From: Candidatus Aenigmatarchaeota archaeon
GTDB taxonomy: Archaea > Aenigmatarchaeota > Aenigmatarchaeia > QMZP01 > QMZT01
Length of the DNA stretch: 64,000 nt
Assembly: GCA_041489155.1 (NCBI GenBank)
Contig: JBGPQP010000001.1
Span: 64,001-128,000 of the forward strand
Direction: 5' to 3'
The position numbers and the translations under genes are program-made. Below the pieces are notes generated by a model that was not told where the DNA came from, made no database searches, and was given only the letters and a program-made list of their open reading frames with translations. Positions 29,933 through 37,895 of this stretch are shown one piece after another; the stretch's first letter is position 1; each line of letters starts with the position of its first letter.

Positions 29933-30103
29933 TCACCTTTATTTCCACTGGAGTTTTGTTTTTTGTTTTAAAGCTAAACTTTACGTATACGTATACGTAT
30001 TATAACGATGTTATAAGTTTCCACAGGAAATTAAAATATAGTTCCACAGGAAATTGGGGTGTGCGAGGCAAAAACATTTAAACCCCCGTTTCATATGGAA
30101 AAC
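29933..30103. promoter_or_regulatory. Putative replication origin (ORB cluster) upstream of cdc6
   Basis: Minus-strand ORB AACTCCAGTGGAAATAAAGGTGA (29933-29955), AT-rich spacer, plus-strand GTTTCCACAGGAAAT (30017) and GTTCCACAGGAAATTGGGG (30041), minus-strand TTCCATATGAAACGGGGG (about 30083-30100). Confidence 0.85.
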
Positions 30104-31312
30104 ATGGCCCAAGTTTCCCTCAATAATATTTTCCAAGATTATCTGGAAAAGAAGCCCATTTTCAAGAAAAAAGACATGCTAACAAGTCAGTTCACACCGG
30201 ACACCATACCACACAGGGATAAACAGATCAATCATATCGGTCTCATCCTGGCGCCGGTGCTCCGCGGCGAAAAACCATCCAACATATTCATTTACGGAAA
30301 GACAGGCACCGGCAAGTCTCTCTGCGTCCAGCACACGGTTTCAAGGCTGCTGGAAACGGCCAAAAAAAACGAGGGCGAAAACATCAAGGTAATCTACATT
30401 AACTGCAAGATGAGCAAGGTCTCCGATACCGAGTACAGGATGCTTTCGCAGCTTATACTAAATTTTGGCGTCAGTGTCCCTTTCACGGGCCTGCCGACAA
30501 ACCAACTTTACCAACAGTTTTTCAGCCTGCTTGACGCCAAAAAACAGAGCATCATCCTGGTCCTTGACGAGATAGATGCGCTGATTAACAAAATAGGAGA
30601 CGGCGTGCTTTACAACCTCACAAGGGTCAATCAGGACCTGAAGAACGCAAAACTCACGCTTGTCGGCATATCCAACAACATATCCTTCATAAACGATCTT
30701 GACCCGCGGGTCAAATCCTCGCTGTCGGAAGAGGAAATAGTTTTTCCGCCCTACAACGCAAACGAGCTTAAGGACATACTAACCGAAAGGGTAGGTTCCG
30801 CCTTCAATGAGGGAACGATTACTCCATCCGTTATAGCGAAGTGCGCGGCCCTGGCAGCGCAGGAGCACGGCGACGCAAGGAAGGCGCTCGATCTGCTGAG
30901 GGTTGCCGGAGAGACAGCAGAGAGAATGAGCAACAACATGGTGGCCGAAGAGCACGTTGACCAGGCAGAAAGGAGGCTGGACATGGACAAGACGACAGAA
31001 ATAATAAAAAACCAGCCAAAACAATCCCAATGCGTCCTTATTGCGATACTAAAACTCGCGAAGAACGGCAACAGCGGCATACAGACAGGCGACATATACG
31101 ACGTGTACGTAGACGTCTGCAGGAATAACAATCTCAAGCCGCTGACCCAGAGAAGGGTGTCAGACCTAATATCCGAACTCGACATGTTCGGGATAGTGAA
31201 CGCCAAGGTGATATCCAAAGGAAGATACGGAAGGACAAGGGAAATAAAGACGGACCTTTCGAAAGAAACCACGGAAAAGATAGAAAAGATGTTCAGCGGC
31301 GAGTTTATTTGA
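30104..31312 (+). CDS. cdc6: Orc1/Cdc6 replication initiator
   Basis: PHRDKQI, YGKTGTGKS, VLDEID, LDPRVKSSL, HGDARKALDLLR, SKGRYGRTR wing. Confidence 0.97.
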   Translation: MAQVSLNNIFQDYLEKKPIFKKKDMLTSQFTPDTIPHRDKQINHIGLILAPVLRGEKPSNIFIYGKTGTGKSLCVQHTVSRLLETAKKNEGENIKVIYINCKMSKVSDTEYRMLSQLILNFGVSVPFTGLPTNQLYQQFFSLLDAKKQSIILVLDEIDALINKIGDGVLYNLTRVNQDLKNAKLTLVGISNNISFINDLDPRVKSSLSEEEIVFPPYNANELKDILTERVGSAFNEGTITPSVIAKCAALAAQEHGDARKALDLLRVAGETAERMSNNMVAEEHVDQAERRLDMDKTTEIIKNQPKQSQCVLIAILKLAKNGNSGIQTGDIYDVYVDVCRNNNLKPLTQRRVSDLISELDMFGIVNAKVISKGRYGRTREIKTDLSKETTEKIEKMFSGEFI

Positions 31313-31321
31313 ATTAAGGTT

Positions 31322-32209
31322 ATGGCCAAGCTTATGAACAAAAAAGACATAATCGATTTGTTTCTTAAAAACGGCGTCATGCTCGCGCCGGATGAACTGG
31401 AAAACATCAGCGAGCAGAACTACATGCAGGTGCTCGAGAAAAAGCTTGGCGAGACGAATGACGAGATATTGATCGCCAAACAGAGCAGCGGTAAAATTTC
31501 ATGCGGCGATTTCATAAAATTATGCAACAGGAAATTCGAGTTCCTCAGGGAGATCCTGCTTAAAAAAACAGACGCCGTGTCGATAAACAAGGGAAGGAAG
31601 GTTTTTGCCGAGGCGACAATCATAGGAAGGGTGAAGGAAAGGAACGCAAACGGATTCGTGCTCGAAGATGTAACGGGAGAGACAGAAGTAGTGAGTGAAA
31701 ACAACGACATAAAAACAGGCGATATTGTCGGTTTGCGCGGCTTTTTCAAGGAGAATCGTTTTTTCCCGAACCAAATCATATGGCCCGACATCCCGCTCGA
31801 GAATAATCCAAGGCCACCCGGCATAAAAATCACGCTCACAACTAGGGCAAAAGACAGCATGGCCGGCCTGATAGTATGCTCTTCCGGCGGCAAGGCTAGC
31901 AACATGATATCCGGGTTCGGAAGGCTCGGATCCATAAAAATAAAAAAGCATGGCAGCGAAATTCATCTGCTCGCCTTTTCGCCTGAAAAGGAGATGAGCG
32001 AGGATGATACTGTCAAAACGCTCAAGAAAAGGCAGATATCAGATGACGGCATCGCTGACAACCTGATAGCCGAGATACCAGGAATTTTCTGGCTTTTCAA
32101 CAACGGCAAAAACTGGACCAAAAATTACAGGGGCGTTGTCGTAATATCAAGCGATTCAGGAAGTTTTGCGGAATATGACAACGGGGAAGTCCACTTCGCG
32201 GGCTTGTAG
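31322..32209 (+). CDS. Truncated, inactivated homolog of PolD small subunit DP1
   Basis: DFIKLCNRKFEFLREIL helix, OB fold (IIGRV, LEDVTGE, DIVGLRG, IIWPDIP), C-terminal LKKR..D.LIAEIPGIF..YRGVVVIS; phosphoesterase metal ligands absent. Confidence 0.72.
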   Translation: MAKLMNKKDIIDLFLKNGVMLAPDELENISEQNYMQVLEKKLGETNDEILIAKQSSGKISCGDFIKLCNRKFEFLREILLKKTDAVSINKGRKVFAEATIIGRVKERNANGFVLEDVTGETEVVSENNDIKTGDIVGLRGFFKENRFFPNQIIWPDIPLENNPRPPGIKITLTTRAKDSMAGLIVCSSGGKASNMISGFGRLGSIKIKKHGSEIHLLAFSPEKEMSEDDTVKTLKKRQISDDGIADNLIAEIPGIFWLFNNGKNWTKNYRGVVVISSDSGSFAEYDNGEVHFAGL

Positions 32210-32245: not shown

Positions 32246-32920
32246 ATGCTCAAAATACTCGTCATCGCGGACATACATGGGGAGTTCGAGAAGTTCTCAA
32301 AAATCATAGACAAGCTCAGCGGCAGGGATTTTGACCTGGTGATCTGTCCCGGTGACTTTACCGACATATTCAATATACCTGAAGGCTATTCCCAGATGGA
32401 CATAGCCGAACTGATAGTCCAGAAACTGCTCTCGCTGGGCAAGCCTCTCTTCTGCATACCTGGCAACCACGAACCTTATGAAATAATAGACGTGTTCGAT
32501 GAATACAACGTGAACCTGCATGAAAGAACGAGGAAGTTCAACGATTTCGAGTTCGTGGGCTTCGGCGGGGCAGCAACACCATTCAACACCAAGTTCGAGC
32601 CCACGGATGAGGAAATAAAACAGGCGCTTGAGAGAAAGACCAAGGAAATAAAAGGCAAATTTATACTGGTCACGCACAACCCGCCGCTTGGTACCAACTT
32701 GGACAAGGTTGAAACAGGAGAACATGTCGGCTCGAAAGCGATTCGCGAATTCATAGAGCAGCGAAAGCCCCTGCTTGCGATATCCGCCCACATACACGAG
32801 GCAGGAGGCACGGACAAGCTTGGAAGCACGACCATATTCTATCCGGGCGTTGCCTACGAAGGGTATTACGGCCTTGTTGAGATAGGTGATGAAATAAAAT
32901 GCGAGATAAAAAAGATATGA
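32246..32920 (+). CDS. Calcineurin-like metallophosphoesterase (Icc-related)
   Basis: ADIHG, GDFT, PGNHE, THNPP, HVGS, AHIHE. Confidence 0.92.
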   Translation: MLKILVIADIHGEFEKFSKIIDKLSGRDFDLVICPGDFTDIFNIPEGYSQMDIAELIVQKLLSLGKPLFCIPGNHEPYEIIDVFDEYNVNLHERTRKFNDFEFVGFGGAATPFNTKFEPTDEEIKQALERKTKEIKGKFILVTHNPPLGTNLDKVETGEHVGSKAIREFIEQRKPLLAISAHIHEAGGTDKLGSTTIFYPGVAYEGYYGLVEIGDEIKCEIKKI

Positions 32921-32931
32921 TTCCCTTTCTA

Positions 32932-33651
32932 TCAGACAATGTCTTTCAGCCTGTTCATTATCTCTTCTATTGACTCGATCCTGCACAAAGCCACGGGTAT
33001 GCTCTCGACTTCAGCGATGTTCATGGCAACTTCATTCACCTTGTCTATGCCGTGAAGCACGACCAGACCGGGCTGCAGACCGGTGAGCTTGATGGCAACC
33101 ATTGGCGTTTTTCCGGTAGTCACGCCCGTGAAGAGAAGGGCGCGTTGTGTCGTAGTTCCATAAAGCTGGATCAGCTGGTTGTGTGAAAGCTCCAGTATTG
33201 CCTTCACAGAGTCTACAATGGTGTAACCGTATATTTCCCTGTCAATGGGGGCACGTTTTGTTATTATGCCTGCGTTTATTTTCCTGCAGAAATCCTCTAC
33301 AGGGACGCCGCTAGAAAATTCGCGTATGTCTATTATCGCCTTGGAAAGGTTCGAAGTGCTGGCGACCTGGGCGAAGGTCTTGAGAACATTTCCGCCCCTT
33401 TTGATGTCAAGACCTATCAGCGAATTGACGTACCTCTTTATGACGTTTATGCCTGGCGATTTCCTTCTGCCTGATTCATAGTCGGATATGACAGATGACG
33501 TAATGCCAATGTACTCGGCGAGCCTCTTCTGCGAAAAACCGAAGATTACCCTCCATTTCTTCAGGACCTGCTCGGGTTTTTCGGACAGTATGATTTCTCC
33601 TGTTATATCCTTTGCTAGCCTGTCTCTTGAAAGGTTAAATTCGTCAACCAT
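32932..33651 (-). CDS. Archaeal XRE-HTH transcriptional regulator (COG1709-like)
   Basis: ITGEIILS, LKKWR, SVISDYESGRRKSPG, IYGYTIVDS, RALLFTGVTTGKTPMVAIK. Confidence 0.85.
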   Translation of the reverse strand: MVDEFNLSRDRLAKDITGEIILSEKPEQVLKKWRVIFGFSQKRLAEYIGITSSVISDYESGRRKSPGINVIKRYVNSLIGLDIKRGGNVLKTFAQVASTSNLSKAIIDIREFSSGVPVEDFCRKINAGIITKRAPIDREIYGYTIVDSVKAILELSHNQLIQLYGTTTQRALLFTGVTTGKTPMVAIKLTGLQPGLVVLHGIDKVNEVAMNIAEVESIPVALCRIESIEEIMNRLKDIV

Positions 33652-35255: not shown

Positions 35256-37895
35256 TCAGATTACAATGCTGCTGGCAGGTCCTTGCGGCGAAGAGAACAG
35301 CAGTAAACCACCGCATTCGCAGGCTCCGCTTAGCGGAGGCATCGCATATGTTTTGCAGCATTTTTTGCAGATGAAGCCGTTAAAGTCTTTCATGGAAACT
35401 TCCTTCGCTTCAATCGCTTTTCCGCCATTTCCGTTCAATATGCCGAACAAATCGATCTGCTTGCCTTTGCCAAGAAGCTCGGTCTTTGAAATGCCTAGCG
35501 CATCGAATATTCGTTCGAGCGGAGGAAGCAGCTGGTTTTCTATGTAGTACTTCGAGTCTATTTCCAGCCCCCGTTCCATGACGTAAACCGGGTCTTCCGC
35601 CCTTTTTGACAGGAGATCGAGGCCTTTTATTATCACATAACCAATCCTGTCCCCGACGCCTGGCGCTTCAGCCGGCGTGCGTTTCTTTATCTTTTTCACG
35701 AGTTCTGCATGCGGCTGCATGCCGTCATAGCGTTCCGCTCCTTTGGTCATGGTCTTGGTTATTATCAGCTTCTGTATGGGTATCCCGCCAGTGACCATTT
35801 CATCAGTAACGTTTTTGAAATATTTCACAGCCTGCTTGATGTCATTTGCCTTGAGTATGGTTTCCAAAATCTTCTCTATTGTTTCTGATGTAAGATCGCA
35901 CCAGTCTCTCCGGACGGTTTCAATACCCTTCGTTTCTATGCTTTCAACCCAGCTCCCGTTGACGTAATCGAAACGCCATGCAGCATAGCGTTTTTTTGTG
36001 AGAGGCAGGAAGCGCTTGAAAATTTTCTCGAAATCAAGTTCCATCACGCCCTTCAGGCCTGACGTAACGTTTTTGGCCACTTCGTCTCCGGCTTTCTTCA
36101 TCTCATCGAGATCCTCGAAAGGCACCTTGACCATCACGGAATCCGTGTCACCGTAAACGACCCTGTAGCCGAACTTCTCCTCTATGTATTCTTTCGTCTT
36201 CTTTATGGTTTCCCTTCCGAATCCGGTTATCGAGTTGGCTATTTCAAGAGAGTAGATTTTCGCTCTGGGGTAGCCGAAATAGCCATAGAAGGCGTTGGCC
36301 ATTATCTTGAGGGCGAACTGCTTCGCTTTCAGTTCACGTATGCGTTCAGGCTTCGGCTCCTTCTTCATTTCCCTTTTCACGTTTTGCCTCTCCTTCATAA
36401 GATGCTCCAGTATCCGTGGTATTATCCCCTTCCTGACGTTTTCTGGCACGAATCTCGCCCCGGACGGCGACTGCACGGCGCCCTCGATTTCTCCGTCCAG
36501 AAGCAAAGTCGTCGGGCACATGTTATACGTCCGGATGAGCGAAGGGTACATGGACTTGAAATCAAGCACAAGGACGCTTGAGTGCAGGCCCTTGTCAGGT
36601 TCTATAACGAAACCGCCTTTCAATTCGACCTTTCTGGCGTTTTCCCGCTTGGCGACTTCCATGTTGTCCGACTTGCATGGAATTATGAAGTTCTCTTTAT
36701 TGAACTCCCTCAGTATAAGGTTTTCGATCCTCGTGGTCTCGCCGGAATCAAGTATGTCCTGCAGTAGGATTCCTGAAATCTTGGAAAGAGCAATGTACTT
36801 GTCCAGCAGGTTGAGTTTCAGCAAAAGGTTCATCGCGATAACGGAGTCCTTTTTCGCGTAATTCACCAGAAGCCTGAATTTTTCCTGGTTGCCCTTCCAG
36901 AGCTTTTCTATCTCCGATTTCTTCACAGGTTCCTTTTCCTCGCCGAGCAGCTCAAGACCCACGGTGTTCAGGTCATATCTCTTGAGGGAGAAGTCACGTT
37001 TGACAATTTCAAAGGAATCAACTATTACCCTCCCGGATATGTTTATCTTGAATCTGCTCATCATCTGGTGTTTCGTAACGGGTTTTGTGCACCTACCGAA
37101 ACTCGCGAATACCCCTCTTTCCTTCATTCTGTCGAGTATGTAGGGTATGTCGAAGTTATTGACGTTGAAGCCGGTGATGATGTCAGGGTCATAGTCCATT
37201 ATTACGTCTATCAGTCCCCTGAGCATTTCACTTTCGTCCTCAAAAAAGGTAACGTCCTTGTCGGACCTCGTGCTCAGCACCATTTCCTTCCTCCCCTTGT
37301 GCGCATCGCTGAAAACGAGCGAAATCATTATTATCGGGTCCTTCCTGCCGTCAGGCATTTCCCCCTCTTTAAGCGAAACGCACTCTATGTCAAGTGCCAG
37401 ATATTTCAGCGGCGCGATGCCATCCTTGTCGGCATGCCTGAATTCCTTTATTTTTATCCTTTTTTCCGTTTTCACGGTGTTCGTCGGGACGCCGTTCGTG
37501 TCTTCAACTTCCAGCCAGTCCATGCCCTTTAGGCCGAAGTCCGCCATGAACCTGTATTTGAAAGGAATGTCAGCCTCGAAGACACGGAAGCCTCTTGACA
37601 TGAGCTTTTCCCTCAGCTCAGGCGTCTTTGCAGGATTTTTTATTACGACTTTCCAGACATCCTTCATCTCCGTCTGGTAGCCGAGCGGAAGGAATTTTTT
37701 CACCTTCTCCAGACGCACGAAATTCGCTTCGTTCTTTACATGATCCTCGATATTGTTTCCGAGCACGTAGAAATAGGGCTCGAAATTCTCGTAGAAACCG
37801 CATACGGTTTCGCCATTTTCAGTCTTGCCGAAAAGCCTTATTATCGGCTTTTCGTCGACCAGCGTGTAGTCCACGTCGAGTATCTGGAAAAGCAT
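35256..37895 (-). CDS. polB: Family B DNA polymerase with C-terminal DP2-like Zn finger
   Basis: ExoI LDIEC, ExoII NVNNFD, ExoIII YAKKD; DFKSMYPS, KIMANAFYG, YGDTDS, KKRYA; PIP-like QIDLF; FICKKC-x-PPLSGACECGG tail. Confidence 0.95.
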   Translation of the reverse strand: MLFQILDVDYTLVDEKPIIRLFGKTENGETVCGFYENFEPYFYVLGNNIEDHVKNEANFVRLEKVKKFLPLGYQTEMKDVWKVVIKNPAKTPELREKLMSRGFRVFEADIPFKYRFMADFGLKGMDWLEVEDTNGVPTNTVKTEKRIKIKEFRHADKDGIAPLKYLALDIECVSLKEGEMPDGRKDPIIMISLVFSDAHKGRKEMVLSTRSDKDVTFFEDESEMLRGLIDVIMDYDPDIITGFNVNNFDIPYILDRMKERGVFASFGRCTKPVTKHQMMSRFKINISGRVIVDSFEIVKRDFSLKRYDLNTVGLELLGEEKEPVKKSEIEKLWKGNQEKFRLLVNYAKKDSVIAMNLLLKLNLLDKYIALSKISGILLQDILDSGETTRIENLILREFNKENFIIPCKSDNMEVAKRENARKVELKGGFVIEPDKGLHSSVLVLDFKSMYPSLIRTYNMCPTTLLLDGEIEGAVQSPSGARFVPENVRKGIIPRILEHLMKERQNVKREMKKEPKPERIRELKAKQFALKIMANAFYGYFGYPRAKIYSLEIANSITGFGRETIKKTKEYIEEKFGYRVVYGDTDSVMVKVPFEDLDEMKKAGDEVAKNVTSGLKGVMELDFEKIFKRFLPLTKKRYAAWRFDYVNGSWVESIETKGIETVRRDWCDLTSETIEKILETILKANDIKQAVKYFKNVTDEMVTGGIPIQKLIITKTMTKGAERYDGMQPHAELVKKIKKRTPAEAPGVGDRIGYVIIKGLDLLSKRAEDPVYVMERGLEIDSKYYIENQLLPPLERIFDALGISKTELLGKGKQIDLFGILNGNGGKAIEAKEVSMKDFNGFICKKCCKTYAMPPLSGACECGGLLLFSSPQGPASSIVI

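Follow-up and report, generated by a model that had tools for sequence, protein, structure and literature searches.

The window considered here, a 64,000-nucleotide (nt) stretch of a Candidatus Aenigmatarchaeota archaeon genome (assembly GCA_041489155.1, contig JBGPQP010000001.1, positions 64,001 to 128,000 of the forward strand), contains at positions 31322-32209 of its plus strand an open reading frame of 295 codons without an internal stop, in agreement with the first-pass annotation of this DNA, which had called the frame intact and free of frameshifts. The frame lies in the neighbourhood of an orc1/cdc6 initiator gene and of a gene for a family-B DNA polymerase (PolB), and its product is very probably the non-catalytic second (B) subunit of the cell's replicative family-B polymerase, derived from DP1, the small subunit of the archaeal polymerase PolD. 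The assembly, designated G000, is a metagenome-assembled genome (MAG) of 1.13 Mb in 39 contigs that is 89.65% complete. The parts of the DP1-like protein, in amino acid (aa) positions, and those of its predicted partner, which carries a C-terminal domain (CTD) related to that of the PolD catalytic subunit DP2, are as follows.

31322-31456, plus strand: N-terminal three-helix domain of the DP1-like protein, aa 1-45 (helices 7-16, 23-28 and 34-41 in the model)
31457-31606, plus strand: linker strand and long helix before the OB fold, aa 46-95 (helix 61-82 in the model; aligns to Pyrococcus abyssi DP1)
31607-31816, plus strand: OB fold, aa 96-165, ending in IIWPDIPL (weak PF01336 match; NF003118, PDB profile search and structure alignment)
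31817-32209, plus strand: remnant of the phosphoesterase domain, aa 166-295, and stop codon (five metal/catalytic motifs lost; no PF04042 match)
35256-37895, minus strand: PolB, 879 aa (PF00136, 374 bits), convergent with the DP1-like gene
35259-35426, minus strand: C-terminal zinc ribbon of this PolB, its last 56 aa, of DP2-CTD type (Cys843, 846, 859 and 861)

In Pfam, the 295-aa protein has just a sub-threshold OB match (PF01336, E 0.049), and the DNA_pol_E_B model (PF04042) had no match at E <= 1 in the protein and none anywhere in the genome. The NCBIfam model of the PolD small subunit (NF003118) matched aa 52-164 with an E value of 9.2e-15, at 54.5 bits against a curated cut-off of 445 and therefore below the family cut-off. 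When a profile of the protein's family was compared with the sequences in the PDB, the six best matches were all DP1 (top match 5ihe, E 9.1e-8); this alignment begins at profile position 27, and the N-terminal domain showed no homology to the solved DP1N structures in that search. The same domain aligns with the N-terminus of canonical DP1 from the same phylum.

Comparison at the level of structure gave a consistent picture. For the AlphaFold model (mean pLDDT 85.8, pTM 0.77), Foldseek placed P. abyssi DP1 at ranks 1-9 (E 4e-13 to 2e-10), followed down to rank 49 by B-subunits of eukaryotic Pol epsilon, delta, zeta and alpha together with DP1 chain 6knb, while the first unrelated protein, the OB domain of a lysyl-tRNA synthetase, appeared at rank 50. 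VIA-align superposed the model on 6t8h_A with Z 18.5 and a root-mean-square deviation of 3.4 Å over 244 residues, pairing residues 47-295 of the model with 196-615 of the chain; the B-subunits of Pol delta, zeta, epsilon and alpha gave Z values of 14-17 over about 240 residues, and matches confined to the OB fold reached Z of about 11. Because the alignment extends over 244 residues at Z 18.5, the modelled protein retains the whole DP1 core in compressed form, with 249 residues spanning what requires 420 in P. abyssi DP1. Profile, Foldseek and structure alignment thus all rank DP1 first, with the eukaryotic B-subunits next in the two structure comparisons, which bears out the homology proposed in the first-pass annotation; unrelated OB proteins, the best matches that it had named as speaking against DP1 kinship, did not take that place.

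The distribution of this protein and its partners was followed through 201 sampled genomes of Aenigmatarchaeota, from which 40 loci were fetched and the DP1-type proteins aligned with MAFFT (f1, f9, f12 and f13 below are families of the phylum, and G and L numbers denote genomes and loci in this analysis). Motifs were read against four aligned canonical DP1 proteins of family f9, whose DP1 is intact and which is the one family that keeps DP2. The DP1 landmarks picked out earlier fall in register in this alignment, with LKKR on LKRRH, LIAEIPGIF on VIDKVPDIF and YRGVVVIS on YKNVLVINS. The four f9 proteins (472-501 aa) keep all five catalytic motifs (SDxHxG, AGDLxDG, PGNHD, MYHGY and SGHLHT); the window protein has TRAKDS, a gap, SSG, AFS and LFNNGK in the corresponding columns. 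Motifs I-V are therefore all absent, and FNNG falls exactly on GHLH, as expected from the earlier remark that SDxH, GD and GNHD are gone and that FNNG stands at the GHxH position. A HMMER alignment to P. abyssi DP1 also puts the FNNG segment on the GHVH region, with a score of -1.1 that is not significant alone. After the OB fold, 130 aa remain in the window protein (residues 166-295, matching the earlier estimate of a domain shrunk to roughly that length) versus about 270 aa in canonical forms. Judged from these motif columns, the phosphoesterase site is inactivated.

Despite this loss, the gene is under purifying selection and is not decaying. A family profile matches 183 of the 201 genomes, and 149 of 150 among the matches listed have no internal stop. 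The window protein has 50 database relatives at 38-92% identity, most of them 289-313 aa long and three shorter (186-278 aa); those with names are mostly recorded as 'hypothetical protein' and come from Aenigmarchaeota/Aenigmatarchaeota MAGs. When the window protein and 35 of these relatives were aligned (36 of 51 sequences), 23 columns proved invariant, and they occur in each of the three parts, the C-terminal one too. In the N-terminal domain L15 and P23 are invariant and G18, E31 and N33 nearly so; in the OB fold, the best-conserved part of the protein, G102, R103, E115 and D116 are invariant; and the remnant has conserved residues at W265, N261, N264, N268, Y269 and G271. Since most orthologues in this alignment begin at the residue aligned with Met5, the true start of the window gene may be the ATG at 31334, which would give a protein of 291 aa. 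The window gene is without a close relative at unsaturated dS (dS 1.86 against locus L010), so the ratio of nonsynonymous to synonymous substitution rates (dN/dS, Nei-Gojobori) was taken from three other orthologue pairs. For the whole gene it was 0.35 (dS 0.05), 0.20 (dS 0.21) and 0.11 (dS 1.24), and for the C-terminal remnant alone 0.12-0.27, values that show none of the pseudogene-like decay that the first-pass annotation had asked about. With a DP1/B-subunit fold, lost motifs and purifying selection, its description of a catalytically dead DP1 homologue retained for a structural role stands.

If DP1 has lost its catalytic site, the fate of its usual partner becomes important. No PF03833 or TIGR00354 match to DP2 was found in G000, and the remaining four genomes of its genus, among them one with a contig of 1.1 Mb, likewise gave none. 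Among the 201 genomes, strong DP2 matches occur in all eight f9 genomes and as two contig-end fragments in f12, and nowhere else. Raw matches of the TIGR00354 type would put DP2 in 111 of the 201 genomes, a count that was rejected: apart from those of the eight f9 and two f12 genomes, these matches cover 27-133 residues. Nearly all of the short ones are about 30 residues long, fall at model positions ~1013-1050 and mostly lie at the end of PolB frames of ~900 aa; these matches are the PolB zinc ribbon and not DP2. The two f12 fragments (G091:C64:11-1852, 558 bits; G169:C78:2-718, 277 bits) come from genomes that also carry a zinc-ribbon PolB, and represent either bin contamination or lineages with both polymerases.

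The PolB of the window has intact exonuclease and polymerase motifs (DIE, NNFD, YAKKD, DFKSMYPS and YGDTDS) and ends in a zinc ribbon of the pattern C-x2-C...C-x-C that follows a GKGKQIDLFGIL box, its four cysteines being invariant in 32 of 32 orthologues. In relatives, the DP2 model TIGR00354 aligns with the ribbon segment through its positions ~1013-1050. A zinc-ribbon profile matches 195 of the 201 genomes; its f9 matches are weaker (E 1e-9 to 1e-13) and presumably lie inside DP2 itself. Because the genome has no detected DP2 and this PolB carries a C-terminal zinc ribbon of DP2 type, the nearby PolB is the partner to which the DP1-like protein is assigned. The second PolB of the genome (833 aa; G000 contig 7, L070:328-2829, plus strand) was considered for this role and rejected, as it lacks a Cys-rich tail and ends in a QSSLDAFV box resembling a PCNA-interacting peptide (PIP), followed by a basic tail.

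Modelling of the complex is consistent with this assignment. The input consisted of the 295-aa protein, the C-terminal 75 residues of PolB and a zinc ion, with both proteins as alignments. The prediction scored 0.68 and the best of 3 controls 0.00, which passes a mark that 116 of 157 solved complexes, and 2 of 215 mismatched pairs, attain; the runs agreed in at least 95% of contacts, and partner pLDDT was at least 85. The predicted contacts lie on residues 54-72, 103-106, 115-117, 132-133 and 242-245 of the DP1-like protein, and thus include the invariant R103, E115 and D116 of the OB fold, and on residues 832-879 of PolB. The linker and long-helix segment (interface residues 54-62, 64-66, 68-69 and 72) is the main predicted contact with the zinc ribbon. 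On this model the DP1-like protein is predicted to bind the CTD of PolB. Complexes of DP1 with the DP2 CTD and of B-subunits with PolB CTDs have already been solved, so the score signals likeness to such complexes rather than binding by this particular copy. An interaction of DP1 with PolB-DP2CTD, by AlphaFold3 and yeast two-hybrid, is described for Aenigmatarchaeota and Baldrarchaeia in the available text of a recent study (PMC12680538).

The position of the gene in its neighbourhood provides additional information on its probable role. The remaining genes and elements of the block are listed below.

29943-30055, strand not assigned: three copies of a 14-nt TTCCAC(A/T)GGA-type repeat, at 29943, 30019 and 30042 (79%, 100% and 100%)
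30059-31312, plus strand: orc1/cdc6 initiator, 417 aa (NF001625, 509 bits against a cut-off of 501; Cdc6_C and Cdc6_lid)
32246-32920, plus strand: metallophosphoesterase, 224 aa (PF00149, E 8.6e-22), 37 nt 3' of the DP1-like gene
32932-33651, minus strand: HTH_3 protein, 239 aa, tail-to-tail with the metallophosphoesterase

The orc1/cdc6 frame stops 9 nt before the DP1-like start, and the two genes are probably co-transcribed. The earlier description of this adjacency as a known euryarchaeal arrangement is borne out by the available text of Berthon et al. (2008; PMC2643942), which documents cdc6-DP1 linkage in Thermococcales, Halobacteriales and Methanosarcinales and a P. abyssi oriC island composed of cdc6, DP1 and DP2. 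Across the phylum, 34 of 35 non-f9 loci have cdc6 upstream of the DP1-like gene in the same orientation, and in 31 of the 35 it is within 150 nt. In orders other than that of the window, 14 of 15 loci have PolB directly after the DP1-like gene and in its orientation (13 within 117 nt), forming a cdc6-DP1-like-PolB operon in which PolB occupies the position of DP2 relative to the Pyrococcus island; 16 of 20 loci in the window's order have a convergent PolB at a distance of 1.4-5.1 kb, the other four ending or having no PolB in the fetched stretch. TctA lies between the two genes in that order, and family f1 adds the metallophosphoesterase-HTH pair. Neither cdc6 nor PolB occurs within 8 kb of the canonical DP1 in any of five f9 loci.

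Taken as a mechanism, these observations would be explained if the lineage lost DP2 and a PolB bearing a DP2-type zinc ribbon and its own 3'-5' exonuclease took its place. The phosphoesterase site of DP1 would then have become dispensable, so that its motifs were all lost and about half of the domain was trimmed, leaving a beta-rich remnant besides the N-terminal helical domain, the long helix and the OB fold. Docking on the PolB zinc ribbon would take place through the helix and the surface of the OB fold, and the polymerase would thereby be stabilised and linked to the replisome, as in PolD and in eukaryotic Pol alpha, delta and epsilon. GINS is a possible binding partner of the N-terminal domain, on the example of Thermococcus DP1N: DP1N binds Gins51C according to the available text of PMC9023282, and a GINS (Sld5-family) gene is present on contig 4 of G000. 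By analogy, a GINS tether is a plausible role for the retained domain. The proposal of a polymerase scaffold in the first-pass annotation is supported as far as the scaffold is concerned, and can be sharpened to a B-subunit of PolB, a specific partner that it had not named.

Other families of the phylum contain forms with different degrees of motif loss. In three f12/f13 orthologues (362-392 aa) GNHD is the one motif missing, and I (SDxH), II (GD), IV (H) and V (GHxH) are retained; in a fourth, of 353 aa, motifs I and IV remain. Each of these four genes is followed immediately by a PolB with the zinc ribbon, and none of their genomes gave a DP2 match (loci L050-L053, which are G040:C8, G106:C2, G015:C1 and G082:C1). 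Their motif content suggests that these proteins may be intermediate, possibly nuclease-active forms. Lineages other than f9, f12 and f13 have fully dead forms of 290-345 aa. It is possible, as a tentative and somewhat doubtful proposal, that living genomes of the phylum keep the steps from a PolD-type replicase to a eukaryote-like PolB with a B-subunit, in place at the origin; the steps would run from f9, with DP2 and a motif-bearing DP1 of 470-500 aa, through the f12/f13 operons of cdc6, a 350-390-aa DP1-like gene and PolB, to the dead forms of the rest. The retained order of origin, cdc6, B-subunit and PolB hints at an in-place replacement of DP2. If this series is real, the 290-aa form would represent a minimal B-subunit core, and half of the phosphoesterase fold would be dispensable for its function.

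Several observations weigh against assigning the window protein to PolB as its B-subunit. The absence of DP2 from G000 is, in itself, short of proof in a MAG of 39 contigs. The TIGR00354 search had no match to the tail of the window PolB, and the model finds the PolB tail in one of the 16 genomes of the window's family; since the model misses the window tail, the DP2 origin of this tail rests on alignment with relatives. In the window, the DP1-like and PolB genes are convergent and 3 kb apart, with TctA, the metallophosphoesterase and the HTH gene between them, and so do not form an operon. The DP1-like gene is also the fastest-evolving of the block, with 60% identity in a congener in which cdc6, PolB, the metallophosphoesterase and the HTH gene have 77-81% and TctA 68%. 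The remnant contributes three interface residues only (242, 243 and 245), which leaves its conservation unaccounted for. Finally, the published two-hybrid pair is, in the available text of PMC12680538, another Aenigmatarchaeota pair and not the proteins of the window.

These points need to be considered together with what other explanations can account for. Tight linkage to cdc6 beside repeats resembling origin recognition boxes (ORBs), the high conservation of the OB fold and the link between Cdc6 and DP1 at origins proposed in the available text of Berthon et al. (2008; PMC2643942) would fit a stand-alone OB-fold protein that binds single-stranded DNA or acts with Orc1/Cdc6 as an origin factor, detached from any polymerase. 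The protein, however, keeps the entire DP1 core and not the OB fold alone, with a Z score well above that of OB-only matches. The PolB operon of other orders, the docking predicted on the tail of PolB and the two-hybrid result published for the phylum in PMC12680538 likewise speak against a stand-alone factor, and this explanation is unlikely. It is considerably harder still to see the gene as a functionless PolD relic heading for loss. Every catalytic motif and half a domain have gone, the gene is the least conserved of its block, and a DP1-like gene went undetected in 18 of the 201 genomes; yet frames of similar length stay open across the phylum, dN/dS is 0.1-0.35 overall and equally low in the remnant, invariant columns run through the family alignment, and genomes that are 82-98% complete can explain the 18 misses. 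Decay of this kind is extremely improbable.

A different possibility is that DP1 has been split, with the downstream metallophosphoesterase supplying the lost nuclease in trans and the pair amounting to an active DP1. The enzyme has all of its motifs (DIHG, GD, GNHE, HNPP and AHIHE), and it follows the DP1-like gene by 28-63 nt on the same strand in 11 of the 40 loci (all 10 f1 loci and one other). Its best solved relative, however, is Aquifex aq_1956 (2yvt, E 1.1e-7), with no DP1 chain matched, and it matches Metallophos and Metallophos_3 rather than DNA_pol_E_B. The other families of the window's order have it on the strand opposite to cdc6 and upstream of that gene, and of the 15 loci in other orders, 11 have no copy within 8 kb. 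Its position next to the DP1-like gene is kept in one family only, and the gene it travels with is the HTH gene; an exonuclease in trans is, moreover, unneeded by a PolB that already has an exonuclease domain. The metallophosphoesterase was therefore rejected as a detached DP1 nuclease, and a split DP1 is very improbable. A B-subunit of PolB derived from DP1 is the reading preferred here. The metallophosphoesterase and HTH genes are always tail-to-tail and move as a unit, being found downstream of the DP1-like gene in f1 and upstream of cdc6 in the order's other families.

Eukaryotic replicative polymerases combine a family-B catalytic subunit with an inactivated B-subunit of DP1 type that is joined to it through a Cys-rich tail. 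The B-subunits of Pol delta (p50/Pol31), Pol epsilon (p59/Dpb2) and Pol alpha (p70/Pol12) share with the window protein an inactivated OB and phosphoesterase fold, and they sit on a Cys-rich CTD of the catalytic subunit whose counterpart here is the zinc ribbon of PolB. They differ in having an inactive fold of full size (about 400-500 aa) and partners with two metal modules (CysA and CysB), whereas the window system has one zinc ribbon and a much smaller remnant, at a sequence identity of 12-18%. P. abyssi DP1 (5ihe and 6t8h) shares the N-terminal helical domain, the helix, the OB fold and the phosphoesterase fold, as well as a gene position beside cdc6 at the origin; unlike the window copy, which is without the five motifs and has half of the domain, it is an active Mre11-like 3'-5' exonuclease that has these motifs and binds DP2. 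The route from archaeal PolD and PolB to the eukaryotic architecture is still an open evolutionary question.

The combination of an inactive DP1 with a CTD-bearing PolB in this phylum is already known. In the available parts of Kazlauskas et al. (2020; PMC7544198), Aenigmarchaeota are reported to have PolB of group B6 with CTDs of one or two metal motifs that are closest to the DP2 CTD, DP2 is missing from most Aenigmarchaeota, and an inactive 'Aenigma' group of DP1 co-occurs with CTD-bearing PolB; its authors proposed a replacement of DP2 by PolB, and in their view a DP1 of this kind may be similar to the form from which eukaryotic B-subunits descend. The available text of PMC12680538 (2025) adds that DP1 without DP2 is confined to Baldrarchaeia and Aenigmatarchaeota, which makes Aenigmatarchaeota one of two archaeal lineages reported with a eukaryote-like architecture, and the window a clean example of it. 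The published inactive DP1 of PMC7544198 agrees with that of the window in phylum, in a DP1 fold with a dead site, in the lack of DP2 and in a PolB with one C-terminal zinc motif, and Table S4 of that paper places a 336-aa DP1 and, immediately after it, a B6 PolB on one contig, an arrangement that matches the operon order found here in other orders. The window copy differs from the published group, as available, in being shorter (291-295 aa) and in belonging to an order in which the PolB gene is inverted and 1.4-5 kb away. The words operon, adjacent and neighbo(u)r do not occur in the main text of PMC7544198, and its Supplementary Figures S15 and S16 may already show size and motif data. The additions made here are thus incremental, and consist of the quantified gene order, the motif-loss series, selection on the remnant, the predicted interface and a minimal size of about 290 aa. 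Correct naming of a family that is 'hypothetical protein' in records and escapes Pfam would also improve the annotation of DPANN genomes.

Additional features of the locus concern the origin and the polymerase gene itself. The three repeats occupy an AT-rich spacer of 133 nt upstream of cdc6, which also contains a TACGTATAC/GTATACGTA palindrome at 29982-29999. They seem to resemble the archaeal mini-ORB consensus and are candidate origin recognition boxes; the spacer is likely to be a replication origin. The third repeat runs right up to the GTG annotated as the cdc6 start, so the ATG at 30095 may be where that gene really begins. Between the PolB thumb and the zinc ribbon lies a PIP-box-like QIDLFGIL (35436-35459, minus strand), whose Gln is nearly invariant within GxGKQxxL and which, from its sequence, may be an internal PCNA-binding motif. 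In loci L051 (G106:C2) and L058 (G064:C4) the orthologous zinc-ribbon PolB is encoded in frames of 1300-1730 aa or gives tblastn matches split by 1.2-1.4 kb, as is also the case in G116, G022, G174, G188 and G119, and these long or split frames suggest the presence of inteins within the polymerase domain.

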